From positions 10,699 through 74,698 of the forward strand of contig JAJCXZ010000091.1 of NCBI GenBank assembly GCA_029263175.1: a stretch of 64,000 nt of DNA, in the 5' to 3' direction. This DNA comes from Acidimicrobiales bacterium (GTDB taxonomy: Bacteria > Actinomycetota > Acidimicrobiia > Acidimicrobiales > Aldehydirespiratoraceae). A program made the position numbers and the translations under genes. This document shows positions 2,222 to 59,709 of the stretch, in pieces (position 1 is the first letter of the stretch; each line of letters starts with the position of its first letter). The notes under the pieces are model-generated. The model saw only the letters and a list, made by a program, of their open reading frames with translations, was not told the origin of the DNA and made no database searches.

Positions 2222-3452
2222 GACACTGGACCGACATCGGAGAATCTTTGGCGAGCGTGCGCCGCTCTTCTATGACGAGCCCCTGGAACTCATCCGAGGG
2301 GAAGGGGTGTGGCTCCTCGACGCGCACGGTCGCCGCTACCTCGACGCCTACAACAATGTGCCGTGTGTGGGTCATGCGAACCCCCGGGTTGTCGCAGCCG
2401 TCAGCGAGCAGATGGCGACGCTTCAGGTCCACAGCCGCTACGTCCATGGCGTGGTCGTGGACTACGCCGAGCGTCTTGCGGCACTCCACGCCGACCCGCT
2501 GTCGTCACTCGTGTTCGCATGCTCTGGAACCGAGGCCGACGAGATCGCCATGAGCATGGCCCGCCTCACCACCGGCAACCGGGGGTTCATCACCACCGAA
2601 GCGGCGTATCACGGCAACAACTCCGACGTCGGCCGACTCAACGACATCGGTGGCCGTGCTTCGGTCGGAAAGCCCGTCGACCCGGAGGTACGCGGTGTGC
2701 CGCTACCCGACGGCTCCCGCCGATTCGTCGAGGGGGTCGCCGCCGCAATCCGATCTCTCGACGAGGCGGGAATCGGGGTCGCTGGGGTGCTGATGTGCTC
2801 GATCCTGGCCAACGAGGGCCTGCCCCCACTCGCCGACGGTGAGATGGCGGAGGTGGCCGAGTTGGTTCACGCAGCCGGCGGTCTGATGATCGCCGATGAG
2901 GTCCAAGCCGGGTTCGCCCGCAGCGGCCGTTGGTGGGGGTACGAGTTCTCCGGTTTTGAGCCGGACATCGCCGTGATGGGCAAGCCGATGGGCGCGGGTG
3001 TTCCGTTCTCTGGCGTGGTCGCGGCCCCCGACGTGGTGGATCGGTTCCGGTCCTCGACTCGGTACTTCAACACCTTCGCGGCCACACCCGTGCAGGCCGC
3101 CGCCGGCATGGCCGTGATCGATGTCATCGAGGATGAGGGCCTGCTGGCGCAGACAACCCAGGTCGGCCGGCACCTCGCGGACGGTCTTCGCGGCCTGGGG
3201 ATCACCGATCGGCTCGGCGAGGTCCGCAATGTGGGTCTCTTCGTCGGAGCCGACTGGCTCGATGCTGACGGCGCGCCGGACGGGCAGGGTGCCAGGGCGG
3301 TTGTCAACGCGGCACGTCACGCCGGCGTCCTGATTGGGTTGGACGGCCCGCACGGTCACGTGCTGAAGCTCCGCCCTCCGCTGGTGTTCTCGGCGGCAGA
3401 CGCCGATCAACTCCTCGAGATCATCGCGGCAGTCTTCGCGTCGGCGACGTGA
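2214..3452 (+). CDS. Class III PLP-dependent aminotransferase-fold enzyme (aminotransferase or phospho-lyase type)
   Basis: Same frame as track ORF 1893..3452, trimmed to ATG 2214, which overlaps the upstream stop. Signatures: GEGVWLLDAHGRRYLDAYNNVPCVGHANPRVV, LMIADEVQAGFARSGRWWGYE, and the PLP-lysine context DIAVMGKPMGAG. Confidence 0.9.
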   Translation: MGETLDRHRRIFGERAPLFYDEPLELIRGEGVWLLDAHGRRYLDAYNNVPCVGHANPRVVAAVSEQMATLQVHSRYVHGVVVDYAERLAALHADPLSSLVFACSGTEADEIAMSMARLTTGNRGFITTEAAYHGNNSDVGRLNDIGGRASVGKPVDPEVRGVPLPDGSRRFVEGVAAAIRSLDEAGIGVAGVLMCSILANEGLPPLADGEMAEVAELVHAAGGLMIADEVQAGFARSGRWWGYEFSGFEPDIAVMGKPMGAGVPFSGVVAAPDVVDRFRSSTRYFNTFAATPVQAAAGMAVIDVIEDEGLLAQTTQVGRHLADGLRGLGITDRLGEVRNVGLFVGADWLDADGAPDGQGARAVVNAARHAGVLIGLDGPHGHVLKLRPPLVFSAADADQLLEIIAAVFASAT

Positions 3453-45104: not shown

Positions 45105-45370
45105 TCGCTGACCCCCTCGCCAGGTGAGGGATCGGGGCGAAATGCCCGACAATGGAAGGCGTGGAAGCCTCGATCTCCCCCTTGGTTCGACAGTTGGAAG
45201 GTGTCGGCGGTTTGTCGCGTCAAGGCGTCATTGCAAATCGGGATCGGGCTTCAGGCCTTCGAGGATCACCGTGTCGGCCGAGAACTCCGGCTGTTCGCCG
45301 TTTCGACCAAGAGCGAGCAAGGAGCCTGCTCGTCTGGCAGGATTCGGTCGAACACGAGGGGGATTTCACC

Positions 45371-45784
45371 ATGAGCGGAATGAACATCCGGGATCACGAG
45401 CTGTTTGCGGGGCTTGGCAAGAAGGAACTCCGAGAGGTCGAACGGCTCTCAACGCCGATCTCCATCTCGGCCGGGCGGAAGGTGACCGTCGAGGGAACCC
45501 GCGGCCGCGAGTGCTTCGTGGTCATGAACGGCACCGTCGAGGTTGCCCGCCACGGCGAGAAGGTTGCCGAGATCGGGCCCGGGGGACTCGTGGGCGAGAT
45601 TGCCCTCCTCGACACGTCGGACCACACCCGCACCGCCACGGCAACCGCCTTGACCGACGCTGATGTGCTGGTGTTCTCCGCCGACGAGTTCCGGACACTG
45701 ATCACCCAACACCCGACGATCGCCGAGCGGATTGAGCGGACCGCTGTGCAGCGTCTGATCGACGACCTCTCCGCCGAGGATTAA
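45371..45784 (+). CDS. Stand-alone cyclic-nucleotide-binding (CAP-effector) domain protein
   Basis: Track ORF 45152..45784 trimmed to ATG 45371, preceded by GAGGGGGA. It has the phosphate-binding-cassette-like GPGGLVGEIALLD..HTRTATATA and the preceding beta-roll pattern. Confidence 0.75.
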   Translation: MSGMNIRDHELFAGLGKKELREVERLSTPISISAGRKVTVEGTRGRECFVVMNGTVEVARHGEKVAEIGPGGLVGEIALLDTSDHTRTATATALTDADVLVFSADEFRTLITQHPTIAERIERTAVQRLIDDLSAED

Positions 45785-46797
45785 CCGGCTACGAGTTCGG
45801 AGAACGTGCGGATCGTTGTCTCGACCTCGTCTTTGCTGACGTCGAGATGGCACACGAGCCTCGCCAACGAGCGGCGCGGGCCCGTCGTGATCATGGTCTG
45901 CACCCCGCGCTCGAGCAGCTGATCCTGAAGGGTCGGCTCGTCGCCGTCGACCTCGATGAACACCATGTTGGTGGCTTGATCCACCACCGTGATTCCGTCG
46001 ATGTTGCCGAGACCCTCGGCGAGGCGGGCGGCGTTGGCGTGATCGTCGGCCAACCGCTCGACATGATGGTCGAGGGCATGGAGCCCGGCGGCCGCGAGCA
46101 CGCCCGCTTGGCGCATCGCTCCACCGGTCATCTTGCGCCATTTGTGGGCCTCATGGATGAGCTCGGCGGGTCCGCTCAGCACTGAGCCGACCGGTGCGCC
46201 GAGTCCCTTCGACAAACACATCGAGACAGTGTCGAACTCGGAGGTGAACTCCTCGGCCGAGATGCCGAGGGCGACCACGCCGTTCCACATCCGTGCGCCG
46301 TCGAGGTGGATCGACAGGTTGTGCTTACGGCCGACGAGCGTGGCCTCACGCATCCGGTCGACTGACTGCACGTGGCCGTCCTTGGTGTTCTCCAGGCAGA
46401 GAAGCCTGGTGCGAGCAAAGTGATGGTCGTCGGGTTTCACCGATGCGTCGACGATGTCGGGGTCGATCAGACCGTCAGCGTGCATCGGGATCGGCTGGGG
46501 TTGGATGCCGCCGAGCACGGCGGCGCCGCCGCCTTCCCAGCGATAGGCATGAGCCATGTCGCCGACGATGTATTCGTCGCCGCGACCGCAGTGGGCGAGC
46601 AGCGCGCACAGGTTCGACTGAGTGCCACTGCTGACAAACAGAGCGGCCTCTTTCCCCAGTCGTTCGGCCACCGTGTCTTGCAACAAGTTGACGGTCGGGT
46701 CGTCACCGAAGACGTCATCGCCCACCTCCGCGCTCGCCATTGCAGCGCGCATGGCGTCGGTCGGACGGGTCACGGTGTCAGAACGGAGATCGATCAC
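45781..46797 (-). CDS. ltaE: Low-specificity L-threonine aldolase
   Basis: The ORF is 338 aa. [40 protein letters not shown] is diagnostic of the family, and the PLP lysine context is [12 protein letters not shown]. Confidence 0.9.
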
Positions 46798-46819
46798 CTG
46801 CCCATTGTGGCCTACCCCG

Positions 46820-46884
46820 CGGGCTTTTCTGCCACCTGCCGCACAGTTGGCGAGCGCGAGGTGGCAGAGATCGCCGGTTGGGGA
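46820..46884 (+). repeat. ~65-nt structured interspersed repeat, copy A
   Basis: CGGGCTTTTCTGCCACCTGCCGCACAGTTGGCGAGCGCGAGGTGGCAGAGATCGCCGGTTGGGG. It aligns with the copies at 47835 and 59075, all in the same orientation. Confidence 0.85.
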
Positions 46885-46908
46885 GCGCTGTCACACCCGG
46901 GTGGTTCG

Positions 46909-47826
46909 ATGACGGGCATGCGAGACATGACGAGTCTCGTTCGGACGGCCGCGAGCCAATATGGCCTCCTCTCAACCCGACAACTCCGCGAGGAAGGGGT
47001 CAGCAGGTCGAGCCAAGCCTCCATGGTCCGCTGTGGGATTCTGGAAAGCGTGCGACCGGGAGTCGTCCGTCTCATGGGCGCGCCTGAGAGCTGGGAGCAA
47101 CGTTTGCTTGCGGCGATACTGACGCCAGGGACGCAGGTCGTCGCGAGCCACCGAAGTGCACTACGTCTCTGGGGACTTCGCACTCGGTTCGACGGCATCG
47201 AGTTGGCTATCAGAGCGCCGGCAAACCGGCGCATCGGGAGCGCCCGGGTTCATCGATCGGTGGACCTTTGTCGCAGCGATATCACGGTCGTTTCCGGCAT
47301 CCGGGCAACAACGGTGGCGCGGACGATTTGCGACGCCGGCCTCATTTTCCCGGAGCGTGAGGTGCGACGACTTCTCGACCATGCCATCGGCGCCGGTCTG
47401 GTGAGCGTTCCTGAGGTCGAAGCGGTTCGGCACCGCGTCGGCGAGCACGGGCGGAACGGCGTGGTCAAGCTCGATCTCGCCGTGGACAGCCTCCCCGCGG
47501 GCGCTTCCGACGCCGAGTCGGGCCCCGAGGTTGATCTACTCCGGATTCTCGAGGAGGCCGGTCTGCCGACACCGGCCCGGCAGCACAACCTGACTGCCCA
47601 GGGCAACCGCTACCGGATCGATCTGGCCTTTCCAGCGGTCAAACTCGCCCTGGAATACGACGGCCGCGACATCCACACCCGGTTCGACCGTTTCACCGAC
47701 GATCGGCGCCGCCAAAACGACCTGGTCTGCGCGGGCTGGACGGTCCTTCGCTATACAAACGAGGACCTTCGCGACCGACCCGGGGTGATCGTCCATCAAG
47801 TCCGCCAACACCTGTCGCCCCGCTGA
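46909..47826 (+). CDS. AbiEi-like N-terminal domain + DUF559 (Vsr-like endonuclease fold) protein
   Basis: Track ORF 46372..47826 trimmed to ATG 46909. The N-terminus reads [39 protein letters not shown]. The C-terminus reads [51 protein letters not shown]. Confidence 0.8.
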
Positions 47827-47834
47827 CCCCAACC

Positions 47835-47898
47835 CGGGCTTTTGCGCCACCTGCCGCGCGGTGAACGAGCGCGAGGTGTCAGAGATCGGTGGGGGTGG
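47835..47898 (+). repeat. ~65-nt structured interspersed repeat, copy B (overlaps the 3' end of the giant gene)
   Basis: CGGGCTTTTGCGCCACCTGCCGCGCGGTGAACGAGCGCGAGGTGTCAGAGATCGGTGGGGGTGG. Confidence 0.85.
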
Positions 47899-50800
47899 TT
47901 CGGGTGAGCTCTTCGAAGCGCGACTGCGCCTGAGCGAAGTCAGCTGTGTCGAAGAGCTCGGCGGCCGCCAGCATCTCTTCCTCGAACGAGAACACAGCCA
48001 GGGCGTGCCATTCGTTTCCATCGCGGTCGCCGAACTCCGGCTCGACGAAGAGCACCGTGTCCGACATGGCGTGGACGGCCACCAGACGGTTGTGGAACCC
48101 GTCGGCGACCTCGGGGAAGGCCGTTTGAAGCTCGATCCATCCAGCGGCGTCGACGGTTCCGAAGCTGGCGGACCGGTGGTCGACAGCGACAAAGTCAGCC
48201 GCGAGGACGGACGAGTTCAGCTCGGCGTTGCCCCTCTCTTGCGCGGCCATCGCCCGCCCGAGTGCTAGCCACGACTCCGCTCCCGTGGTGGTGAGCGACT
48301 CAGCGAACCAGCGGTCGAGTATTTCGTATGCCCCGGATTCGGCTTCGGGTTCGAAGACTGCGGCCCTACGTATGAGCCCGGCGTCGTCGACCTCAACAAC
48401 GGTGAGTCGGGGCTCGGTGAACCCATCAACTGTGAAGTGGATCGTGTCGCCGGCCAGGCACAGATGGTCGAGCCTTGTGGCGCGCAGGCCCCTGGTTGCA
48501 CGGGCAACCATCTTGTGGTCGAGAACGTCGCGGAGCAGCTCACGCATGTCGTCGATGGTCCGCCGACCTGCAGAGATGAGCGTGTGGTCCTCCAAGACAC
48601 CCTGCGGGTGCCAGAGGGCGAGTGCGGCCTCGAGATCGTGATCCTCGAAGAGCGCCTTGCCGTAGGCGCTCATCGCTTGAAGGGCTCGATTCTGTAGCGC
48701 CGGAGCGGCGATGGCGAGCTCGTCGAAGCGCGCCAGGGCAGCGTCAAGATCGTCAAGGTCGTAGAACTCGGCGGCTGAGAGAGATCCCGACCTGCTCAAC
48801 GAGAAGACGGCAACGAAGCGCCACTCGTTGTCGGAGCTATCGCCGAATTGCAGCTCGAGCACGAAACCATTGGCGGAGATCGAGTGGACGGCATTCAGAC
48901 GGTTCCAAAAGCCCTCCGTTTCGCTGTGGAAGCTGTGTTGGAGGTCGATGTAGTCATCGAGGTCGACCGTTCCCCACCCACCAAGTCGATGATCGATGGC
49001 TCGAAAATCGGGCCCGGCAAGATCTCGCAGAAGGGGTTCCACCTCGTCAGCTCGGGTGAGATCGACGCTCGTCAGCAGCAGCTCGAAAATCGCCAGCACC
49101 TCAGGGTCGAGAGTGTCGGCGAACCACTCGTCGAGATGCACCATGGCATGGTCCAGTTGGTCGAGATCGAGGCTCATCAGCCGCGACACCGCGCCGCTGG
49201 GTACGACCTGTGACAGGACCAACGACTCGAGGGCGAACTCCGGCTCGGGCCCAAATCGCCATTGTTGGAGGATCAGGTCCTCTCCACGCGTGGCGATGGT
49301 CGTGACCTGTGGTTCACCGTTCGAGCGGATGAGCTCGAGCGTGGCGTCGATCATTTGTCGGGCCGTGACGATCCCGAGACCGAGACGGCGGGTCGAGGAG
49401 AACTCAGTATCGGCACCGTAGATCTCCGCCAGACCCGCCTCATCGAGGGCGGCCATGCAGGAGCGGACCTTCTCCATCGCGCGTCCAGCGTGCGTGTTCG
49501 CCAGCCCACACAGCTCATGGAACCGCGCAAGAGCCATGTCGAACGCCGTGGTCTCGTAGAACTCGGCGGTGCGGCCCATCGCCTCCCGATAGGAGAAGAC
49601 GCCGAGGAAGCTCCACTCGTTGCCGCTGTCATCGGCGATCTGCATCTCAGCGAGCAAGGCCGTCGGCGAAATTGCCCCGACCGTGACCAGACGATTCCGT
49701 AGCCCAGTGGTCAGGCGGTGGAATCCAAGCTGAAGCTCCACCCAGCCGTCCACACCGACTCGGCCCCACCCTGCCGGTCGGTGATCGGTGGCGCTGAAGT
49801 CCTGATGCAGCTGGGCGCGTATCGCCGTCTCGTCCCCCAATTGTTGGGCCCGCATTCCTTCTCGATGTGCCTCGAAGACCGTTCCCTCGTCTGCGGTCAG
49901 TGAATCGGCGAACCAGCCGTCGAGAAGCGCGAAGGCATCGTCGCTCTGCTCGGGCTCGAAGTAGGCGTAGCGAGTGATCAGGCTGGCGTCGTTGACCTCA
50001 CAGATGGTGAGCCGCTCGTGCACGAACCCTTCGACTGAAAGCTCGCTCGTGGTGCTGAGGAGGCAGACATGCTGGCCGCGAGTTGCCAGAACCTCGGTCA
50101 GGGACGCGGCAAAGTCCTCGTTGTCCATCAGATCAGCGGCGACGGCCCGCCACTGCTCGACCGTATAGGTCGTGTCGAAGAGCGCTCGACGATCCTGCAT
50201 GACGGCGTTTGACGCGTACTGCTCCAACATCGTTTCGATGTCGCGAGCGAAGAACGCATCTCGGGCTCGGGCGGCCGTCGCCGAGGCTCGGTTCGACAGG
50301 CGGTCTGTCGGGACTGTCAGCTCGTCGAATCGGGCGAGCGCTGCGTCGATACTGTCGACGTCGAATTCCTCCCAGCGCATGACGAGGCTGTCATGCACTT
50401 CGACGAGCAGAAGCGACCGCCACTCCGTCTCGGTGCCCAACGCATCGACGGCGCGTGGTTCGGTGTCGAGCACGCACACGGTCTCGGAAATGGCGAGGAC
50501 GCCGTGGGAAACGGCGGTTACGTCTCCCGCGAGTTCCAACCAGGTGCGCATGCTCTCGATGAAGCCGTCGGCGTCCTGTTCGTGGCCGATCACGCTCTTG
50601 TTGACGCTGAGGGCGAAGTCCGGCGCCAGCGCGGCTCGGGCTCGTTCCCAATCGTGGGCGTAGAGGGCATCAATGAGATCCAAGAGCGGGTCGACGACGC
50701 TCCGAGCTCGAGCGCCATCCAGATCCGACTCGTACCAGAGCTCGATCGCGTGGCGCTGCGCTTCATAGAACTCGGCGTAGTCGAATGCCCTTGCTCCATC

Positions 50801-53800
50801 AGGTGATCCGATTCGGACGCGAGATCGATCGCGGTCGAGCTCGATGGTCACCGGCTGGGTCGAACCGAGCTGGCAGACCAGCTCCCATCGAGGGGCCGTG
50901 AGCTCGTCGAACCGACCGACAGCGGCGTCCACGGCATCGACGTCGAACCACTCCATGCGGTCGACGAGTTCGCCATCGAGGATGAAGAGGACAAGACGAG
51001 GCCCCTCGACGTTGACACCGGTTTCGCCCTTGACCGTGCTCACGAGCTCGAGCAACACACCCTCCTCTGTCACGCGGAGATAGCTACTCGGGCTGGTTCG
51101 CCATGAACCCTGACCCTGAATGTCGGCGAGCGAATCGAGGTATTGGTCGATCGTCAACTCGCCGAAGCCGATCGAACGGCGGTCGACGAGCGTGAACGAG
51201 TCGGTGAGGCTCTCGCGCATGCCTTCACCATCGGTGCGGCGCAACGCAGCGCCGACCCGATCGGTCGTCTCGATCGCAGCGCGGAATGGCGCAGCCTCAC
51301 CTTCGAGCCACCACTCACGAAGGAGGCGCAGCGCCTCAGCCATCTGGGTGGTGTCGAATGCGGTGAGGCGCTTCTGCAGGCCGGCATCGTCGACTTCTAG
51401 GACGGCGAGGAACTCGATTTCGTCGTCATTCCCGGTGGCGAACCGGATCGTGGCCAGGATGAGCTGTTCACCTCGAAACGCGATGACCGCGGTGTCGAAG
51501 CGATCGAAGCCGACGGCGACGAACGCGTTGATGACATCTAGGTGTTCGGCCAGAGCGAAAACACGAGCGCCGCCGGTGCTGTGTCGAAGAGATGTGTCGA
51601 CATAGTCCGATCGGAGGAGCGCCGCATAGCTGTCGATATCGCCTGCTGTCAGTGCCGCGATTGCCTTTGCGTGCGACTGCTCGGCGAGCGTTTGGTGCTG
51701 TCTTCGATCGATGCCGGAAGCGCGGTCGGGGGGAGTGTTCTTGTCGGCCACATATCCGGTTAGTTCGTCAAAGCGAGCGAGGGCCCGATCGAGCTCGTGA
51801 CCGTCGAACCATTCACCGCGGGCGATCTTGCCGTCACGAACCACCGTCATGAAGACCAGCTCTGATTCGGCCTCGAACCCGTCGTTGGTGCGGGTGACGT
51901 GGCGGCCTGTGGCCACCGTGCCAGATCCGGTGAGCCGGTGGAATTCCGTGGCGAAGACTTGCTCGCTGCTCTGGCCGTCGGTCCACTCGCCGACGAGGTC
52001 AGCCGCGTCCGACCGGTCCATGGTTGGCAATCCGAGCTCCCGATGGTCGACGAACTCTGCGTCCGCGAGCATGTCCGCGGCGAGCTCCTCCGCCCTGCCG
52101 TGCTCGAGGTTGTGTGAGGTGCGGGTCAGCAGTCGGATGATTTCGGCGTGCTCCGGCGTCTCGCCCTCCGCCCACCAGTCGCTGAGGCGGTCGACTGCCT
52201 CGCCCATCGCTTCGGGGTCGAGCAACTCGGCGCGCGTCACGAGCCCGGCAGAGTCGATCTGTGCGACGGCGATCATCTGGCTGACGTAGCCATTGGACGG
52301 CCGGTCCATGTCCGCCGTGAATAGGGCCAAGTCGTCCCCTCGAATCGCCTGAAGAGTGAGCGAGATGCCGACCACATCGGCGTCCTTCATCCTGTGGACG
52401 TGCTCCTCGGGCGTGTAGATCTCGTGGCGCAGCTGCCGACTGTCGTGGATGAATGCTGCCGGACTGAAGCTCGCAATCACCGCCTCCCAGTCTTGAGCGT
52501 TGATGGCCGCGACCTGGCGCGCCCAAACGGCAGACGCACGATTGCCGAATCGGTCGGCCGGTTCGCGCGTCAACTCGTCGTACCGGGCTATGGCGCGATC
52601 GAGATCGTCGACGTCGAACAGCTCGATGCGGGTGGCGAGACCGTCGGTACCGAGGACGAGCGTGTACATCTGCCACTCGACGTGGCCGCCCGCCTCGTCG
52701 AATTCGAGGGTCTGCACGTGGACCAGGATCGACTCGCCGGCAATGCGTACGTAGTCGCGGACGATGACTTGGTTCTGGTCGGCCTCGTAGCTGGCTGCCA
52801 GGTTTGCGCTTCCCTCGCGATTCATCGTGCCGAAACCCAGGCGGCGATGGTCGACGAAGACAAGATCGTCTGCCATCCGGTCGCGGTGGGCGTCGGCGCG
52901 ATCCCCAGCATTGCTTTCACCGGCAATGCTGAACGACCATGCCAACTCGATGATCTCTCGGTACGGTGCTCCCTCGCCCTCGAGGTAGAGCTGGTTGAGC
53001 TTGTCGAGCGCGCCGCGAAGATCATCGGCCGGGTACGCAACTGTCGTCTCGACCTGGCCACCGGTATCGAGACGGATCACTCGATAGCGGGCCGCTTCGG
53101 CGCTGCCCACACGTGAGGCGACACAACGCTGACCTCGTCGCGCGACGGTCTCAACGGTGAGTCCTTTCGCCGCCGCTTCGGTCCGGGCGACCTGTTCGGC
53201 CGCAGTGAGGTCGACCGCCGGACTCCCGGACACGTCCTCGAATCGGCGAATGGCCCGGTCGAGGTCGTGGAAGTAGAAGAGTTCCATCCGGGTGAGCCGG
53301 CCAGCGGCGAAACTCATCAGCGAGAGGCCCGGCTCCTGTTCGATGTGGCGGCCGTCAGTATTCGAATGGGCGCGGTAGTCAAGAAGGATGGCTGTGGGAC
53401 TGATGCGGAGATAGCGGCGAGCGACGATGAGGAATCCGGCGGCTGAGGCGGTCTCCACAAGCATGGCAAGGAGCGGAACCTCGATCTTGAGCCGCTGGTG
53501 GTCGACGAAGACCCCATCGGGATCGACCAGCCTCTCAACTGTCGCGACATCGCCGTCCACGTTCGCCTGCCGGAATCTGGTGCTGATATCGATCGGCTCG
53601 GCGAAGTCCGCGCCCTCGCCCTCGAGATAGAGGCGATTCAGCTCGTCGAGTGCCGGGCGAATGTCGTCCTCCCCCAAGAACACGCCGTAGTCGGACAATC
53701 CGTTTGCCGCCGTCCGCGAGACGATCAGCGATGTGTTGACGAAGCCGTTTTCGGCTTCCATCCGCCAGGAGACGAGCGCAAGCCGGTCGCCGCGGATGGC

Positions 53801-56800
53801 GATCGGCTTGGCCGTGACGGTGAGGCCGAACTCGGCCCGAGAGCGCATGGCATCGATTCGATCCTTTGCGCCGACCGACGGGTGCCCCATCTGACGGGTG
53901 TCGACGCTGTCGTAGTCCTCGGCGAACTGCTCCAAGGCTTCGTCCCAACCCTTGGCGTTGACCAGGTCGCACACGCGGAGGATGCCTCGGGTCGCCGCGT
54001 TGTCGAGCGCGAAGTGATCTGGATTGGTGGGGTCCCTGGTGGCAAGAACTCGCGCCTCCAGCTCCTCCCAGGCGGCACGCAGTCGGGCCTCGTCCGGCGA
54101 GAGTGCGAGCGTGTCGAACATCGCCAGCGCCTCGGATTCGGTATCAAACACCCAGCAGCGTTGCAGTCTGGCGCGGTCCGACAGCTGGTTGACCTGGAAC
54201 CACTGGACTGTTCCGCTGCCGTCGGTGGCAGCGAGGGATGACTCGACGAGGACGATGTCTTCGCCACGCGTCGCGATGACCACGACTCGATGGCCGAAGT
54301 CCGGCAGGCCCTCCATCGCCGTAATGAACGCCTCCTGCATCTGGTCGGTGCCGGCGAGGACGCTTTGCATCCCCTGGCGACAGTCTTCGAAACGCACGTC
54401 GGGCTCGCTGAGCCCCGTGAAGCTCGGATCGCCGCTCCAGACGAGGCGGGATATCAGTCGGGCTGATCGGGCACAGACATTGTCCGGAACGACCGATTCG
54501 ACGGCATTCGACGCTGTCGCCGCCGGGGCATCGGCGGCCGTTGGCGGCTGTGCGCCCTTCGCCTCATAGAGGCTCGCCGCTTGACGTGATGCGCCGTCGG
54601 CCGAGGCTGCGTTGCCGGCGCGGGCATGCACGACGGCAAGCGTCGACACGGCCCGAGCGTGATCGATCGTGAGGTCGGTGCCTCCGGCGATCTCGACGGC
54701 GGCCTCCGCCAATGCGATCGCTTCGTCGAACCGGCCCTGTTCCGCGGCGATCTCCGCGCCGGCGGCCCGTGAGGCGATCGCCGTTTGGAGATTCTGGCCC
54801 GCCAGTTCCTGCGACTCGACCGCAAGGGGAGCGGCCTGGTCGACACGGCCCTGCAGGACGAGTGCCCGCGAGAGCAAGGCGGCCGCCTGGCCGGCATCAG
54901 CACCAATCCCGAGATTGCCGAGCCCGGCATAGGCACGACGGAGGAACGGTTCGGCCGCCGCCGGGTCGTCGGCGAAGAGCTCGATCACGCCGGCGAACAT
55001 GTCGGTCTCGAGGATGCCGTGGCGCAGACCGAGCTCTTCGACCGTCCCACGGGCTCGCTCGATCAGCTCTCGGGCCTGATCGAACCGTCCCCTCATCGCT
55101 TCCAGCACAGCCTGGCACCGCACCGAGGTGGCCTCGACCATCGGCGAGGCAGACGTGATGCGGAGGAGACGAATGATGTCGAGGCAGCGGCCGCCGGCGC
55201 GGGCAACCGGGGAAGGACCCCAGAGAGCGGCGAGGGGCGCGGCGCCGAGGACGGCGGTGATACGACGGCGGTCGTCGGCCGCGCGGGCGGCCGTGAGCGC
55301 GGCGTCGAGTTCGGTCTCGGCGTCGCCGACGCGGCCGAGACGAGCGAGCACAATTGCCCGCACGAGGCGGGCCTTGGCGACGCCGGCTTGGTCATCGAGG
55401 GCATCGAGCAGCGAAGCGGCGTTGTCGAGCTGTGGTTCGACCGCGCCGAGTCGCTCCGGTTCGGCGAGCCACGCACGATGGCCGGCGAAGGCGTCGGCCC
55501 ACGCCGTCAATCGAACGTCATCGAGTGCAACTTCGCGGAGCTCATCGAAGTGAGGATCGGCCTCTCGGACATTGCCCGAGGAGAAGAACGCCTCGCAGGC
55601 GACGACCAACAGGTCGGCTCGTTCCGGAGCGTCGTTGGGGAGTCGGGCGAGCGCCCGTTGGGCCAACGAACCAGCCGCAGTGAGGTCGTCCTGGGCCAGG
55701 GCTCGCTCACCGGCGATCTGGAAGAGCTGCGCCGCTTTGCCGCCCAGCTCTTCGGCGTCGTCGTCCATTGCGCCGAGCTGGCTTCGAAACTCGTGCGCCT
55801 GTTCGTAGTGAAACCCGATGGTGATCTCGTGCTCGCCGCCGAAGCGCTCCGCGGCATCGGAGGTCCATTCGGCCACCTGCTCATGGAGAGCGGCTCGGCG
55901 TTGCTTCAGGATGCGGCGGTAGCTCGCGTCGCGGATGAGGACGTGGTGGAAGCGAAGGATCGGCTCATCGCCCCAGTAGGTGCCGGTCGGGTCGATGATC
56001 TCCTTGCGGCGGAGACGCTCGAGGATGGCATCGAGCCCTGCTCGCTCGGCGGCCGGGAGGAGAGCAGCGACGGCGCCGCGGGCGAACTCGGATCCGACGA
56101 TCGCCGCCATCTCGACCACGCGCCGTTCGTCGGCCGGCATGCGCTCGACGCGGCTGGCCAGCAAGGACTGGATCGTCGGGGGGACTTCGATCGCTTCCGG
56201 GTCGATCGCCAGTTCCCACCGGCCATCTCGTTCGTGGATCACACCGTCGTCGACCAGCATTCGCACCAACTCACGCACGAAGAGCGGGTTGCCGTCCGTG
56301 GACTCGGGCAGGCGGGCGACGAGTTCGGTCGGGAGGGCTGCGCCGAGGAGGCCGGCGGCGAGTTCCTCGGTGGCAGCTGCGCCGAGGCCCTCGAGCGAGA
56401 CCACCTCGCTGACTCGGCGGCCGACCTCGGCCAGGGCCGGGCGGATCTCTCGGATCTCGGGTCGGGCCAGGCAGATGAGCGCCACGGGTCCTGCCACCCA
56501 TTCGGTCAGGTGGTCGAGGAGGTCGAGGAAAAGCGGCTGAGCCCACTGGATGTCGTCGACCACGATGACCGTGGGGCGCCGGCTAGCGAGGATTTCGAGG
56601 AGACGGCGGCTGGCCCAGAACGACTCCTCGGTACTCCGGGCAGGCGATGCGCCGACGAAGGTGGCCAGCAGGGGAGCGAGGACTCCCACATCGCCGTCGT
56701 TGCCGATCCATGTCTCGATCGCCGTGATCGTTGTCCCTGAATCGCTGCCTTCGAGATCCACTACTTGACGAAGTAGGTCACCGACGGGGCCGAACGAGGC

Positions 56801-57754
56801 CGTGCCGGCGCGGTCCACGCGCAGGTCGAACGACTGGGCGTGGGGTGCCGCGATCGCCCGGGTCTCGGCGGCAAGGCGTGTCTTGCCCACGCCGGGCGAC
56901 CCGACCACCGTGACCAGTATCGGTGCTCGCTCGGTGATGGCCTTGTCGATGGCGGCCGTCAACGTCTCGATCTCGTCTCCGCGGCCAACGAAAGGGGTGC
57001 CGGCGTCGTGATCTACTCCGGCTGCGGGTGCTTCGACGACTTGGAACGTGGCGATCGCTTCGTCCTTTCCCTTGACGTGGACTTCACCGAGCACCTCGTA
57101 GGTGATGTTCGATCGAGTGAGGCGCCAGGTCTGCTCACCGACGAGTACGCGGCCGGGAGTGCATTCGCCTTCGATGCGAGCGGCCGTGTTGAGGGCATCG
57201 CCGAACATGTCGTCGTCGGAGTCGGCCATCACGATCTCGCCGGTGTTGATGCCGACCCGGAGATCGACGTCGGCGTTGTGGACATCGAGGATGCGCTCGG
57301 CGAAGCCGGCGAACTCGGTCTGCAAGTCGACTCCGGCGCGTACCGCTCGCTCGGCGTCGTCCTCGGCGATGTCGGGGATACCGAACACGGCCATCACGCC
57401 GTCGCCGATGAACTTGGCGACGGTGCCGTCATGGCGTTCGATCACCACCTGGGCAAGGCGCTGGTAGTCGCTCATTTCGGCGCGTGCGGTCTCGGCGTCG
57501 ATCTTCTCGCCGAACGCCGTCGACCCGACGAGGTCGGCGAACATCACCGTGACCGTCTTGCGCGTGGCTCCGCCATCGTCCTCGGTGGGCTTCGGGGCGG
57601 CGTGGTCGACGGGTGTCCCACACTGGTCGCAGAACTTGGCGGTCGCCATGAGTGGTGCGGCGCAAGTAGCGCACGAACGACTTAGCGCGGCCCCACAGCC
57701 CGCGCAGAAGTTTGCGGTCGTCCGGTTCTCAGTCCCGCAGGCGCTGCAATCCAT
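47879..57754 (-). CDS. Giant multidomain protein: double zinc ribbon, class III adenylate/guanylate cyclase, P-loop STAND-type NTPase, TPR-like region and ~17 tandem uncharacterised modules
   Basis: A single 3,291-aa ORF. By residue number: aa 1-50, four CxxC pairs; aa ~65-240, FADLVGST, VAKFIGDGVMAVF, RVGINTGE and GDALNTAARIEG; aa 285-292, GSPGVGKT with Walker B TVIVVDDIQW; aa ~640-1065, an Ala/Leu-rich helical region; aa ~1086-3291, repeats ending in R-F-D-E-L-T-like motifs. Confidence 0.9.
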   Translation of the reverse strand: MDCSACGTENRTTANFCAGCGAALSRSCATCAAPLMATAKFCDQCGTPVDHAAPKPTEDDGGATRKTVTVMFADLVGSTAFGEKIDAETARAEMSDYQRLAQVVIERHDGTVAKFIGDGVMAVFGIPDIAEDDAERAVRAGVDLQTEFAGFAERILDVHNADVDLRVGINTGEIVMADSDDDMFGDALNTAARIEGECTPGRVLVGEQTWRLTRSNITYEVLGEVHVKGKDEAIATFQVVEAPAAGVDHDAGTPFVGRGDEIETLTAAIDKAITERAPILVTVVGSPGVGKTRLAAETRAIAAPHAQSFDLRVDRAGTASFGPVGDLLRQVVDLEGSDSGTTITAIETWIGNDGDVGVLAPLLATFVGASPARSTEESFWASRRLLEILASRRPTVIVVDDIQWAQPLFLDLLDHLTEWVAGPVALICLARPEIREIRPALAEVGRRVSEVVSLEGLGAAATEELAAGLLGAALPTELVARLPESTDGNPLFVRELVRMLVDDGVIHERDGRWELAIDPEAIEVPPTIQSLLASRVERMPADERRVVEMAAIVGSEFARGAVAALLPAAERAGLDAILERLRRKEIIDPTGTYWGDEPILRFHHVLIRDASYRRILKQRRAALHEQVAEWTSDAAERFGGEHEITIGFHYEQAHEFRSQLGAMDDDAEELGGKAAQLFQIAGERALAQDDLTAAGSLAQRALARLPNDAPERADLLVVACEAFFSSGNVREADPHFDELREVALDDVRLTAWADAFAGHRAWLAEPERLGAVEPQLDNAASLLDALDDQAGVAKARLVRAIVLARLGRVGDAETELDAALTAARAADDRRRITAVLGAAPLAALWGPSPVARAGGRCLDIIRLLRITSASPMVEATSVRCQAVLEAMRGRFDQARELIERARGTVEELGLRHGILETDMFAGVIELFADDPAAAEPFLRRAYAGLGNLGIGADAGQAAALLSRALVLQGRVDQAAPLAVESQELAGQNLQTAIASRAAGAEIAAEQGRFDEAIALAEAAVEIAGGTDLTIDHARAVSTLAVVHARAGNAASADGASRQAASLYEAKGAQPPTAADAPAATASNAVESVVPDNVCARSARLISRLVWSGDPSFTGLSEPDVRFEDCRQGMQSVLAGTDQMQEAFITAMEGLPDFGHRVVVIATRGEDIVLVESSLAATDGSGTVQWFQVNQLSDRARLQRCWVFDTESEALAMFDTLALSPDEARLRAAWEELEARVLATRDPTNPDHFALDNAATRGILRVCDLVNAKGWDEALEQFAEDYDSVDTRQMGHPSVGAKDRIDAMRSRAEFGLTVTAKPIAIRGDRLALVSWRMEAENGFVNTSLIVSRTAANGLSDYGVFLGEDDIRPALDELNRLYLEGEGADFAEPIDISTRFRQANVDGDVATVERLVDPDGVFVDHQRLKIEVPLLAMLVETASAAGFLIVARRYLRISPTAILLDYRAHSNTDGRHIEQEPGLSLMSFAAGRLTRMELFYFHDLDRAIRRFEDVSGSPAVDLTAAEQVARTEAAAKGLTVETVARRGQRCVASRVGSAEAARYRVIRLDTGGQVETTVAYPADDLRGALDKLNQLYLEGEGAPYREIIELAWSFSIAGESNAGDRADAHRDRMADDLVFVDHRRLGFGTMNREGSANLAASYEADQNQVIVRDYVRIAGESILVHVQTLEFDEAGGHVEWQMYTLVLGTDGLATRIELFDVDDLDRAIARYDELTREPADRFGNRASAVWARQVAAINAQDWEAVIASFSPAAFIHDSRQLRHEIYTPEEHVHRMKDADVVGISLTLQAIRGDDLALFTADMDRPSNGYVSQMIAVAQIDSAGLVTRAELLDPEAMGEAVDRLSDWWAEGETPEHAEIIRLLTRTSHNLEHGRAEELAADMLADAEFVDHRELGLPTMDRSDAADLVGEWTDGQSSEQVFATEFHRLTGSGTVATGRHVTRTNDGFEAESELVFMTVVRDGKIARGEWFDGHELDRALARFDELTGYVADKNTPPDRASGIDRRQHQTLAEQSHAKAIAALTAGDIDSYAALLRSDYVDTSLRHSTGGARVFALAEHLDVINAFVAVGFDRFDTAVIAFRGEQLILATIRFATGNDDEIEFLAVLEVDDAGLQKRLTAFDTTQMAEALRLLREWWLEGEAAPFRAAIETTDRVGAALRRTDGEGMRESLTDSFTLVDRRSIGFGELTIDQYLDSLADIQGQGSWRTSPSSYLRVTEEGVLLELVSTVKGETGVNVEGPRLVLFILDGELVDRMEWFDVDAVDAAVGRFDELTAPRWELVCQLGSTQPVTIELDRDRSRVRIGSPDGARAFDYAEFYEAQRHAIELWYESDLDGARARSVVDPLLDLIDALYAHDWERARAALAPDFALSVNKSVIGHEQDADGFIESMRTWLELAGDVTAVSHGVLAISETVCVLDTEPRAVDALGTETEWRSLLLVEVHDSLVMRWEEFDVDSIDAALARFDELTVPTDRLSNRASATAARARDAFFARDIETMLEQYASNAVMQDRRALFDTTYTVEQWRAVAADLMDNEDFAASLTEVLATRGQHVCLLSTTSELSVEGFVHERLTICEVNDASLITRYAYFEPEQSDDAFALLDGWFADSLTADEGTVFEAHREGMRAQQLGDETAIRAQLHQDFSATDHRPAGWGRVGVDGWVELQLGFHRLTTGLRNRLVTVGAISPTALLAEMQIADDSGNEWSFLGVFSYREAMGRTAEFYETTAFDMALARFHELCGLANTHAGRAMEKVRSCMAALDEAGLAEIYGADTEFSSTRRLGLGIVTARQMIDATLELIRSNGEPQVTTIATRGEDLILQQWRFGPEPEFALESLVLSQVVPSGAVSRLMSLDLDQLDHAMVHLDEWFADTLDPEVLAIFELLLTSVDLTRADEVEPLLRDLAGPDFRAIDHRLGGWGTVDLDDYIDLQHSFHSETEGFWNRLNAVHSISANGFVLELQFGDSSDNEWRFVAVFSLSRSGSLSAAEFYDLDDLDAALARFDELAIAAPALQNRALQAMSAYGKALFEDHDLEAALALWHPQGVLEDHTLISAGRRTIDDMRELLRDVLDHKMVARATRGLRATRLDHLCLAGDTIHFTVDGFTEPRLTVVEVDDAGLIRRAAVFEPEAESGAYEILDRWFAESLTTTGAESWLALGRAMAAQERGNAELNSSVLAADFVAVDHRSASFGTVDAAGWIELQTAFPEVADGFHNRLVAVHAMSDTVLFVEPEFGDRDGNEWHALAVFSFEEEMLAAAELFDTADFAQAQSRFEELTRTTPTDL

Positions 57755-57904
57755 CTATTCCCCCGCACCATTGTCCCGCGGCGGCGCGAATACAGCCAGT
57801 GGTCAGCCGTCACCCACCTTGCGTGACCCCCATCACAGAGCTCCAATACCGAAAAGCGTTGGCGCCAGGGTGCCGAAGTGCGGGTCTGGGCGTCAGACTG
57901 AGGC

Positions 57905-59014
57905 ATGGCTGATCACAGTGCTTCCATAGTCGACGGGTGTGTCGTGCTCGACCGAGATCTCGCCGTGCCGAGCCGCTGGCTGCGAGATCACGGCGACGAC
58001 GCCGGAAGTCTCAATCCGGTCTCGAAGCAGCGCCTGACCGACACCTTCGCCATCGATCGCGACATCGCCCCGCTCGCAGTGGCTCTCGACAGGGATTGGC
58101 TCGACGTGGACTGGAGCGACGGAGCCCGCACGGGTCACGACGTGGCGGCGCTGCGCAAGCTGGCGTCGTCCCGCCGTCGTCCGGCCGTCCGCTCGGACGC
58201 CGGGTTCACAATTCCCCCCGAGCTGGAGCTCTGGGGCGAGCCTCCGGCGGTGACGTGGTTCGATGCCGAGGTGATCGAGGATGACGATCGTTGGGTCGAT
58301 GCGCTCAGCCATCTCCGCACGTTCGGTTGGGTGGCATTCGACGGTGCCGCTTTGGGCGAGACACCAACGCGGAAGCTCGCCGCCCGAATCGGCTATCCCC
58401 GAAATTCGATCTTCGGCGATCTCTGGGAGATGAAGTCGGGCGCCACCGAACACATGGACTCGGCGTACGAGACGTTCGCCCTTGACGTCCACACCGACGG
58501 CACCTACAGCCATGATGCGCCCGGCACGATCCTTTTCGCCCAGCAGATCCGCACCGGTGATGGGGGCGACAGTGTTCTGATCGACGGTTTCGCCGCGGCC
58601 CGTGACTTCCGGGCAGCCAACCCCGAGGCGGCTCATCTCCTCACGCGGTTCGCTATCCGAGCGCACTACATCGAACCGGGTGTGCACCTCCTGGCGGAGC
58701 GTCCCCCGATCCGAGTGGACGAGGACGGCAAGCTCGTGCAGTTGTCGTTCAACAACTACGACCGTGCGCCGCTGCTGCCCGCTGACGGTCTCGTCGACGA
58801 GGTGATCGATGCCTACAACGATTTCCGGGCGGTCTTCAGCGATCCGGCGCGGGCGTTGCGGCACGACTGGAAGCCGGGGCGCATTCTGGTCTTCGACAAC
58901 TGGCGCTGCTTCCACGGCAGAACCGCGTTCACCGGCAGCCGTACGTTCTTGGGCTGCTACACCAATCATGAGGATCTCGAAGGCGCATACCGGGTGGCGG
59001 GTCTGACCCTTTGA
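57905..59014 (+). CDS. Gamma-butyrobetaine-hydroxylase-like / TauD-family Fe(II)/2-oxoglutarate dioxygenase
   Basis: The ORF is 369 aa. An N-terminal small domain is followed by the TauD core with the HxD triad context ALDVHTDGTYSHDAPG and FDNWRCFHGRTAF. Confidence 0.8.
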   Translation: MADHSASIVDGCVVLDRDLAVPSRWLRDHGDDAGSLNPVSKQRLTDTFAIDRDIAPLAVALDRDWLDVDWSDGARTGHDVAALRKLASSRRRPAVRSDAGFTIPPELELWGEPPAVTWFDAEVIEDDDRWVDALSHLRTFGWVAFDGAALGETPTRKLAARIGYPRNSIFGDLWEMKSGATEHMDSAYETFALDVHTDGTYSHDAPGTILFAQQIRTGDGGDSVLIDGFAAARDFRAANPEAAHLLTRFAIRAHYIEPGVHLLAERPPIRVDEDGKLVQLSFNNYDRAPLLPADGLVDEVIDAYNDFRAVFSDPARALRHDWKPGRILVFDNWRCFHGRTAFTGSRTFLGCYTNHEDLEGAYRVAGLTL

Positions 59015-59074
59015 ACGAAGCAGCGCGGACTCGAGCCGACGATCGCCTTCGACCCCTGAACTCGAGTCCCATCT

Positions 59075-59136
59075 CGGGCTTCTGCGCCACCTGCCGCGCG
59101 TTTGACGGGCGCGGGGTGGCAGAGATCGGGGTGGGG
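59075..59136 (+). repeat. ~65-nt structured interspersed repeat, copy C
   Basis: CGGGCTTCTGCGCCACCTGCCGCGCGTTTGACGGGCGCGGGGTGGCAGAGATCGGGGTGGGG. It lies between the convergent stops at 59014 and 59146. Confidence 0.85.
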
Positions 59137-59145
59137 TCGGTGGGG

Positions 59146-59709
59146 CTATGCACGCCTCGCGATGAGGTGGGCTTCGTGGCGGTTGTTCGAGCGCCAGGTT
59201 TCGGTGTGGTGGACGACGTCGAGACCGTCGACCAGGGCCAGGATCTCGTCCTGTTCGACCAGGAACGGGCGGGCGGGTTTCGGCGAGCGTTCCAAATTGG
59301 TGACCGTTGCGATGACCACGGCCAGCACGCCGCCCGGGCCCAGCGCGTCGACCAGCGATGAGAAGAGGTCGCGGTTCAAGTAGTTGGCGACCGTGATGAC
59401 GTCCCACGGACCCGCCGGCAGGGGTTCGGTGTCGAGGTCGACCTCGACCGTCGAGATGATCACGTCCTCCGCGAGGGCTCGCTGGCGGGACTGGATCAGG
59501 CCGACGTCGCTCACGTCGCACACCGTGGCGTCGAGACCCAACCGGGCGAACGTCAACGAGTCGGTCGATCCACCGCCGGCCACGTCGAGCAGACGGCCCG
59601 ACTCAGGCAGATGCGGCACCACGAGTTCAACGAGCTGCGACCCGTGGCTGGTGCCGACTCGCCGTTCAGCCCACTTGTCGTTCCAGCGATCACGATCGCC
59701 GGCACCCAT
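59146..59709 (-). CDS. Class I SAM-dependent methyltransferase
   Basis: Track ORF 59146..60207 trimmed to ATG 59709 (MGAGDRDRWNDKWAER...). It has the SAM motif LLDVAGGGSTDS and starts 2 nt after the valS stop. Confidence 0.8.
   Translation of the reverse strand: MGAGDRDRWNDKWAERRVGTSHGSQLVELVVPHLPESGRLLDVAGGGSTDSLTFARLGLDATVCDVSDVGLIQSRQRALAEDVIISTVEVDLDTEPLPAGPWDVITVANYLNRDLFSSLVDALGPGGVLAVVIATVTNLERSPKPARPFLVEQDEILALVDGLDVVHHTETWRSNNRHEAHLIARRA

Follow-up and report, generated by a model that had tools for sequence, protein, structure and literature searches.

A C-terminal array of alternating NTF2-like domain pairs on a STAND cyclase from an Acidimicrobiales bacterium

A 64,000-nucleotide stretch of the Acidimicrobiales bacterium contig JAJCXZ010000091.1 (assembly GCA_029263175.1), called the window below, contains a gene for a 3291-residue protein in which a putative cyclase-ATPase core is followed by 17 tandem modules of about 130 residues each, 15 of them full-length and two truncated. 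The modules cover residues 1092-3287 (nucleotides 47894-54481), about two thirds of the chain at its C-terminal end, and belong to two alternating subtypes, A and B, both with a predicted NTF2-like fold. The original prediction, made from the letters of the DNA, had placed about 17 modules in two alternating flavors at 47882-54499, and it agrees well with the array described here, which consists of eight A+B units and a leading A module. The protein is best filed as a known kind of STAND cyclase that carries a C-terminal arm of alternating NTF2-like pairs. It belongs to a large family that is unnamed and apparently unstudied.

The modules, identified with profile hidden Markov models (HMMs) for the whole family and for each subtype, are the following.

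54095-54481, minus strand: module 1, divergent leading A-type, residues 1092-1220 (matched by the Family A HMM at E 2.5e-16; the "AAB" start recurs in relatives)
53618-54007, minus strand: module 2, type A, residues 1250-1379 (HMM and subtype HMM)
53219-53611, minus strand: module 3, type B, residues 1382-1512 (HMM and subtype HMM)
52976-53212, minus strand: module 4, truncated type A with the C-terminal half only, residues 1515-1593 (HMM, profile positions 69-135 only; A-type end motif LDKLNQLYLEGEG)
52559-52969, minus strand: module 5, type B, residues 1596-1732 (HMM and subtype HMM)
52163-52549, minus strand: module 6, type A, residues 1736-1864 (HMM and subtype HMM)
51749-52156, minus strand: module 7, type B, residues 1867-2002 (HMM and subtype HMM)
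51299-51697, minus strand: module 8, type A, residues 2020-2152 (HMM and subtype HMM)
50888-51292, minus strand: module 9, type B, residues 2155-2289 (HMM and subtype HMM)
50714-50887, minus strand: module 10, a 58-residue A-type remnant, residues 2290-2347, with the last strands and the C-terminal helix (…HAIELWYESDLDG; position and alignment to A-type C-termini)
50306-50713, minus strand: module 11, type B, residues 2348-2483, the best single-module SnoaL_2 match (HMM and Pfam)
49901-50299, minus strand: module 12, type A, residues 2486-2618 (HMM and subtype HMM)
49499-49894, minus strand: module 13, type B, residues 2621-2752 (HMM and subtype HMM)
49112-49501, minus strand: module 14, type A, residues 2752-2881 (HMM and subtype HMM; part of the ABAB structure model)
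48704-49105, minus strand: module 15, type B, residues 2884-3017 (HMM and subtype HMM; part of the ABAB structure model)
48296-48697, minus strand: module 16, type A, residues 3020-3153 (HMM and subtype HMM; AlphaFold pair model)
47894-48289, minus strand: module 17, type B, residues 3156-3287, ending four residues before the end of the protein (HMM and subtype HMM; AlphaFold pair model)

The expected periodicity proved significant in two kinds of comparison. BLASTP of 130-residue chunks against the whole protein yielded dense off-diagonal matches from residue 1239 to the C-terminus (21-46% identity, E-values down to 5e-30); self-BLAST of the whole protein returned the identity match alone. 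An HMM seeded with the last three B modules matched the remaining modules in the first round (independent E-values from 1e-13 to 1e-5) and converged upon iteration on 16 modules of 129-137 residues, a set that includes the half-module at residues 1515-1593. The remnant at residues 2290-2347, which was detected by no HMM, fills the sole gap and brings the count to 17. Within the window, the modules are confined to the gene at 47879-57754. The last three super-repeats are mutual closest relatives, with 36-46% identity.

The motifs read from the translation by hand are also present. Those ending the B modules were found within 2-6 residues of the counted positions, namely RRFEDV at residue 1503, RYDELT at 1724, RFDELT at 1994, 2281 and 2475, RFHELC at 2744, RFDELA at 3009 and RFEELT at 3279. 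The same holds for the A-type end motif L..W/L[WYF].E (residues 1369, 1583, 1854, 2142, 2610, 2873 and 3145). The additional motifs DHR..GWG.V, NRL..V and [GD]NEW occur in the last three B modules.

Typing with the subtype HMMs gave the order A-A-B-(a)-B-A-B-A-B-(a)-B-A-B-A-B-A-B, where (a) denotes a truncated A module. The array is thus one leading divergent A followed by eight A+B units of about 265 residues each, two of which have a truncated A. The family-wide consensus is NAAtR…ARDW…DRR…ATRGdRLAL…EVDadGR…FDpDD…AELdaRYaAGE for A and …PDfV.vDHR…G…GT…GG.fEw…dGr..R.E.FD.dDlDaALARFdEL for B. Both subtypes conserve polar residues, namely D-x-R in strand 1 and a Glu in one of the later strands. 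In the window protein, as in more than 150 relatives, A and B alternate strictly (ABAB), and in full-length proteins the arrays begin with A and end with B.

Profiles of the two subtypes are homologous over their full length (hhalign probability 99.5%, E 3e-23) and share 15% identity, because of which the alternation is, as judged from these sequences, ancient and shows no pattern of recent duplication. At the nucleotide level, Tandem Repeats Finder reported no tandem repeat with a period above 15 nucleotides, and a direct-repeat search gave stretches of 21-59 nucleotides at 60-83% identity and nothing more. These observations bear out the earlier impression of an old and maintained array.

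The modules were next considered at the level of the fold. The whole protein scores 44.8 bits against Pfam SnoaL_2 (PF12680; cut-off 27) over three stretches. Taken singly, eight of the 17 modules match SnoaL_2 at E<0.1, the best with 22.3 bits, which is below the cut-off of 27. Relatives carry precomputed matches to PF12680, PF07366 and PF14534, and the 17-module profile matches designed NTF2 proteins, MonBI/MonBII, Lsd19 and many ketosteroid isomerase (KSI) entries in PDB. An AlphaFold2 model of the last A+B unit (residues 3020-3287, 268 residues), built from a 32-sequence alignment of A+B units of the window protein and its relatives, has a mean pLDDT of 96.5 and a pTM of 0.91, which speaks for folded domains rather than a disordered region. 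Its modules have the topology a1-a2-b1-a3-b2..b5 with an additional C-terminal helix, and this helix carries an invariant Ala. Foldseek matched single domains of the model to KSI and other NTF2 folds (TM 0.7-0.8, E about 1e-6). Family score and modeled alpha+beta cone together place the modules in the NTF2-like superfamily and in SnoaL_2, as had been proposed from the pattern of conserved residues.

Two-domain matches in Foldseek were only Lsd19 and MonBI-MonBII, which are fused NTF2 pairs (E about 1e-11, TM about 0.4, root mean square deviation 11-12 Å). These values indicate that the A and B domains are arranged differently. A four-module ABAB model (residues 2752-3287; pLDDT 88.6, pTM 0.68) loses confidence at the B-to-A junction. 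Together the two models suggest that the A+B units are rigid bodies linked by less defined joints.

The array region is spanned by a single long open reading frame (ORF), according to both the ORF list and the translation. The features of the gene outside the array are the following.

47879-57754, minus strand: whole gene (3291 residues and stop), with zinc ribbon, class III cyclase, STAND ATPase, tetratricopeptide repeat (TPR) region and 17 NTF2-like modules (ORF translation and Pfam)
57617-57748, minus strand: double zinc ribbon, residues 3-46 (Pfam DZR, E 8.6e-9; same N-terminus in homologs)
57044-57559, minus strand: class III adenylate/guanylate cyclase catalytic domain, residues 66-237 (Pfam PF00211)
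56501-56995, minus strand: AAA_16 / STAND nucleotide-binding domain, residues 254-418 (Pfam PF13191; Walker A GSPGVGKT at 285, Walker B VVDD at 398)
54500-56500, minus strand: remaining STAND core and helical/TPR region, residues 419-1085 (weak TPR_12 at residues 1000-1065; last segment conserved with the Microthrix ortholog)

That the array sits on a cyclase/STAND protein, as the original prediction had it, is borne out by Pfam Guanylate_cyc and AAA_16 together with the cyclase and Walker motifs. The cyclase domain scores 76.8 bits against PF00211 (cut-off 21.9) and is matched by cyclases in PDB at E 2e-18 (residues 66-237). It contains FADL (72), GDG (117), NTAAR (189) and KGK (228), which we take to be the metal and transition-state motifs of class III cyclases. 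With the PF00211 match, the metal Asp pair and the transition-state Asn and Arg in place, the protein is a predicted class III nucleotidyl cyclase. Assignment to the STAND NTPases is likewise suggested by the P-loop with Walker A and B (AAA_16, 64.7 bits against a cut-off of 32.6), the helical/TPR region and the terminal effector domain; TPR_12 at about residues 1000-1065 reaches 24 bits, under its cut-off of 30.1. NCBIfam TIGR03903, the model of the TOMM system kinase/cyclase fusion protein, is matched only in part (model positions 283-894 of 1267, residues 63-663 of the window protein). This identity was rejected, the score being 192 bits against a cut-off of 705.75 and a kinase domain being absent.

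The deposited NCBI copy (P0055 in this analysis) is identical to the window protein from residue 36 on. Its deposited start at Met36 removes half of the double zinc ribbon; translation from the upstream ATG (57754; codons 1-35 at 57650-57754, minus strand) restores a complete double zinc ribbon, as in full-length homologs. The deposited start is therefore probably 35 codons too short.

Searches for relatives revealed a large family. A word-indexed search with the last 1272 residues yielded 35 proteins of 750-2170 residues with the same A and B modules, several of them with the N-terminal zinc ribbon, cyclase, AAA_16 and TPR. An exhaustive search with an A+B profile yielded 6485 cluster representatives at E<=1e-3 and 1665 at E<=1e-30, with up to 16 matched A+B stretches per protein and 29 modules in one protein of 5200 residues. 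Dozens of full-length cluster representatives, whose arrays comprise 4-29 modules, show the architecture zinc ribbon, cyclase, nucleotide-binding domain (NOD), TPR and (AB)n. The N-terminal content of the large relatives was determined by local phmmer against the N-terminal pieces of the window protein and by one smaller Pfam scan. Among the top 150 representatives, most of the clearly N-terminally complete proteins match the cyclase, NOD and TPR pieces, and a few have short unmatched N-terminal stretches. Most of those without the core start with a module at or near residue 1 and are therefore fragments from contig ends. In a few relatives a SARP-type winged helix-turn-helix with BTAD (Trans_reg_C+BTAD) precedes the cyclase.

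The named sources are mostly Actinomycetota (Mycobacterium, Mycolicibacterium, Acidimicrobiales, Microthrix); further sources are metagenome-assembled genomes (MAGs) labeled Binatia, Myxococcota and Sericytochromatia. In RefSeq the relatives are named only "nuclear transport factor 2 family protein", for example WP_090279083.1 of Mycolicibacterium komanii. A scan of genome contigs for close relatives gave an ortholog in a Candidatus Microthrix MAG and two fragments, and the scan of metagenome contigs gave none. We found no description of a cyclase-STAND-NTF2 array in the accessible parts of the open-access literature, which is no proof that none exists. The expectation that such an array on a cyclase/STAND protein would be unusual did not hold, given the 6485 representatives, the RefSeq members and the dozens of full-length proteins with the same architecture; it is unusual only in apparently lacking any description.

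Comparison of relatives shows how the arrays change. Two mycobacterial proteins, WP_090279083.1 of Mycolicibacterium komanii (3289 residues, 16 modules) and WP_067089836.1 (3018 residues, 14 modules), are 86-97% identical per segment, and exactly one A+B unit sets them apart. Copy number changes in steps of one A+B unit. In the Microthrix MAG, the first 1073 codons of the positional ortholog are 74-75% identical to the window, and the similarity ends at the boundary between TPR region and array; the downstream genes for threonine aldolase and a cyclic nucleotide monophosphate (cNMP)-binding protein are syntenic and also 74-75% identical to those of the window. The Microthrix array has 19 full modules in an order that is not colinear with that of the window protein. 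The best cross-species identity of its modules is 29-47%, and in this comparison many modules are nearest to a paralog within their own protein. The Microthrix ortholog itself is split into two overlapping ORFs (L001 5893-9279 and 8630-17008, plus strand; 1128 and 2792 residues) with the break within the TPR region, and this split is either a frameshift error of the MAG assembly or the mark of a pseudogene.

Evolutionary rate was gauged by the variability of the protein in each region; synonymous sites are saturated because the paralogous modules are only 21-46% identical in protein. Among nine sequences of the M. komanii cluster, variable columns make up 4.8% of the cyclase, 7.7% of the NOD, 14.3% of the TPR region and 22.2% of the array. 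The array thus changes at a higher rate than the cyclase, ATPase and TPR parts. Within the module, the variable columns are spread with no sharp hot spot.

Downstream of the gene (at lower coordinates) lie an AbiEi-like/DUF559 ORF and genes for threonine aldolase, a small cNMP-binding protein, a 2-hydroxyacid dehydrogenase, a ROK kinase and a LigD primase-polymerase. The divergent upstream gene encodes a TauD-family dioxygenase and is followed by a gene for a valyl-type tRNA synthetase. The dioxygenase gene (57905-59014, plus strand; TauD/TfdA family, GBBH-like N-terminus) is the real upstream gene, with about 150 nucleotides between the divergent start codons. A 542-residue ORF at 57893-59521 (minus strand), considered as a partner gene, was rejected as an Arg/Pro-rich shadow ORF without a family match.

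The cNMP-binding protein (45152-45784, plus strand; start probably Met73/76, about 45368) is a stand-alone domain (Pfam cNMP_binding, E 3e-16). Its gene is on the strand opposite to that of the cyclase gene, 2 kb and two genes away from it. We found in it no TIR, transmembrane or other effector/killing domain, and of PycTIR only the cNMP part was matched. The position of the gene is kept in the Microthrix MAG (L001 19205-19616), and the gene is absent from the Mycolicibacterium locus. Its product could be a receptor for the product of the cyclase. The ORF at 46372-47826 (plus strand), convergent with the cyclase gene, combines an AbiEi antitoxin-like domain (PADLOC, E 2e-28, residues 180-360) with a C-terminus resembling the DUF559/MTES_1575 endonucleases. 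The 5' part of the ORF overlaps with the threonine aldolase gene, and translation therefore probably begins further downstream than called. BLASTN of this ORF against the corresponding 1-kb spacer of the Microthrix MAG found no similarity.

In Mycolicibacterium sp. BK634 the homolog is located between a gene for an EcKL-family kinase and truB, in housekeeping surroundings. The EcKL-family (small-molecule kinase-like) gene (L004/L005 4934-6001, plus strand) ends exactly at the start of the NTF2-array cyclase gene, which suggests translational coupling of the two; the window locus has no EcKL-type neighbor.

Several known systems are partly alike. Mycobacterial cyclase-ATPase proteins of the Rv0386 / Rv1358 / Rv2488c type, MalT and AfsR share the order of an N-terminal cyclase or other effector, a STAND/AAA_16 ATPase and a helical TPR-type region, and the SARP winged helix-turn-helix with BTAD of AfsR occurs on some relatives of the window protein as well. 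For Rv0386, an active cyclase joined to a regulator of the LuxR type is reported (PMC3466318). Proteins of the Rv0386/MalT/AfsR type end in a LuxR helix-turn-helix or a TPR sensor, whereas the window protein has no DNA-binding end and continues after the TPR region with 2200 residues of alternating NTF2-like domains. The ECF sigma factors SigJ and SigG1 reportedly carry a C-terminal SnoaL_2 domain as a non-catalytic regulatory appendage. In these factors the same Pfam family, PF12680, is found on an actinobacterial signaling protein, as in the window protein, but as a single domain on a sigma factor and not as an alternating multi-copy array on a STAND cyclase.

We propose, with moderate confidence, that the array is a sensor or a regulatory/autoinhibitory arm that controls oligomerization of the STAND protein and hence activation of the cyclase. 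In STAND proteins such as MalT and AfsR, C-terminal repeats keep the ATPase autoinhibited until a signal arrives, and class III cyclases need dimers. By analogy, the NTF2 array would act as a sensing or regulatory arm that restrains the nucleotide-binding domain. This domain would be freed when a ligand binds or the array changes in some other way, the released protein would oligomerize, and the N-terminal cyclase domains would then meet as dimers and produce a cyclic nucleotide. The earlier view of the domains as a small-molecule-binding type is plausible, and such ligands would more likely be small hydrophobic molecules occupying the cone pockets than substrates that are turned over. The cyclase-NOD-TPR N-terminus common to full-length relatives indicates coupling of the array to the STAND cyclase, and the fast evolution of the array is as expected of a sensor.

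Several observations weigh against this proposal. The D-x-R and Glu residues conserved in both subtypes could mark catalysis and not binding, and the faster evolution of the array could be due to relaxed constraint and not to sensing. Since two of the modules are truncated, an intact domain is not needed at every position. The four-module model has a lower pTM than the pair model (0.68 against 0.91), a drop that may partly reflect its shallower alignment (17 versus 32 sequences). Finally, the neighborhood differs between Microthrix and Mycolicibacterium, and because it is not conserved the context hints at no signal or function.

Truncation and rigidity of the modules could also be read in terms of structure. 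NTF2-like domains are classic dimerization and hub modules, so it is possible, though doubtful, that the array is a scaffold without ligand sensing, a chain of pre-paired pseudo-dimers serving as a spacer or as a filament-forming or cyclase-clustering element. The predicted, high-confidence rigidity of the A+B unit, the invariant Ala of the extra C-terminal helix, which suggests tight packing, the tolerance of truncated modules and the fairly even substitutions along the module are all consistent with such a role. A pure spacer, however, is not expected to keep the Asp and Arg at the pocket position, which are conserved in both subtypes family-wide, and the strict preservation of both subtypes through a long divergence suggests a role beyond bulk.

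The copy number variation and fast evolution of the array would also suit an NLR-like (NOD-like receptor) immune sensor, in which hypervariable, expandable repeats recognize phage or foreign proteins and the cyclase makes an alarm nucleotide in the manner of Pycsar or Avs-type systems. The STAND architecture points the same way, as do the match of the cyclase domain to PADLOC PycC models (E 4e-15), the cNMP-binding gene nearby with its synteny in the Microthrix MAG, and the adjoining AbiEi-like ORF. We consider this role unlikely: the PycC matches are limited to the generic cyclase domain, the cNMP-binding protein has none of the killing domains named above, the locus is surrounded by housekeeping genes rather than a defense island both here and in Mycolicibacterium, and the family is conserved on many chromosomes of free-living Actinomycetota. 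One recent survey of defense STAND sensors mentions neither NTF2 nor cyclase. Assignment to a Pycsar system was rejected, there being a generic cyclase match only, no effector domain and no conserved arrangement.

The nearest two-domain structural matches, Lsd19 and MonB, are enzymes, and the Asp conserved in the DRR/DHR motif falls in the alignment on Asp38, the general base of KSI. KSI has the same fold (TM 0.7-0.8) and is a homodimer of separate chains, whereas the window modules form fused heteropairs with an additional C-terminal helix. The family consensus has Leu or Val at the position of Tyr14, and no alignment could be made in the Asp99 region; thus of the triad Tyr14 / Asp38 / Asp99 the Asp38 equivalent alone is conserved, and a ketosteroid isomerase-type enzyme was rejected. 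The KSI sequence used was verified at nine positions against mutant names in PDB. Lsd19 and MonBI-MonBII likewise have two NTF2-like cones of different subtype per functional unit; they are enzymes with one pair, encoded in polyketide clusters, whereas the window protein is a signaling protein with eight pairs and no cluster nearby. An Lsd19/MonB-type fused NTF2 epoxide hydrolase was therefore also rejected, the arrangement being different and the neighbors being housekeeping or metabolic genes without a polyketide synthase. An assembly line of SnoaL-type cyclases, epoxide hydrolases or isomerases, for which the two-domain Foldseek matches and the conserved Asp, Arg and Glu could speak, is very improbable in view of the differing domain arrangement (TM about 0.4, deviation about 12 Å), the non-conserved oxyanion-hole Tyr, the absence of a biosynthetic gene cluster around the gene and the fusion of 4-29 copies to a signaling ATPase and cyclase, which is unlike known NTF2-fold enzymes.

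The proposal of a sensing arm can be taken further, to an unrecognized class of expandable sensor repeat in which each A+B unit binds a different hydrophobic metabolite and many cues converge on one cyclic-nucleotide output. We offer this extension as speculation and think it improbable. If true, the array would be a functional parallel to the leucine-rich repeat, WD40 and TPR arrays of NLRs, but built from small-molecule-binding cones; candidate ligands would be lipids, steroids and polyketide-like compounds, all plentiful where Mycobacteria and Microthrix live, and new specificities would arise by duplication, loss and rapid divergence of units.

To our knowledge, the STAND cyclases of Actinomycetota are a large and poorly understood group, and the input signals of many mycobacterial cyclases are not known. 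In this group, the A+B NTF2 pair is a defined structural unit that follows one conserved cyclase-ATPase-TPR core in 2 to about 14 copies, and arrays of the window type are among the largest tandem NTF2-like arrays found in this analysis, their public names being generic. The pair (268 residues) is small and confidently predicted enough for direct expression and testing. The NTF2 fold is now popular for the design of binders de novo. Ligand-binding cones would make these proteins multi-input chemical sensors and a natural library of NTF2 pockets; if the cones bind no ligand, the array would be a new kind of rigid-unit repeat scaffold.

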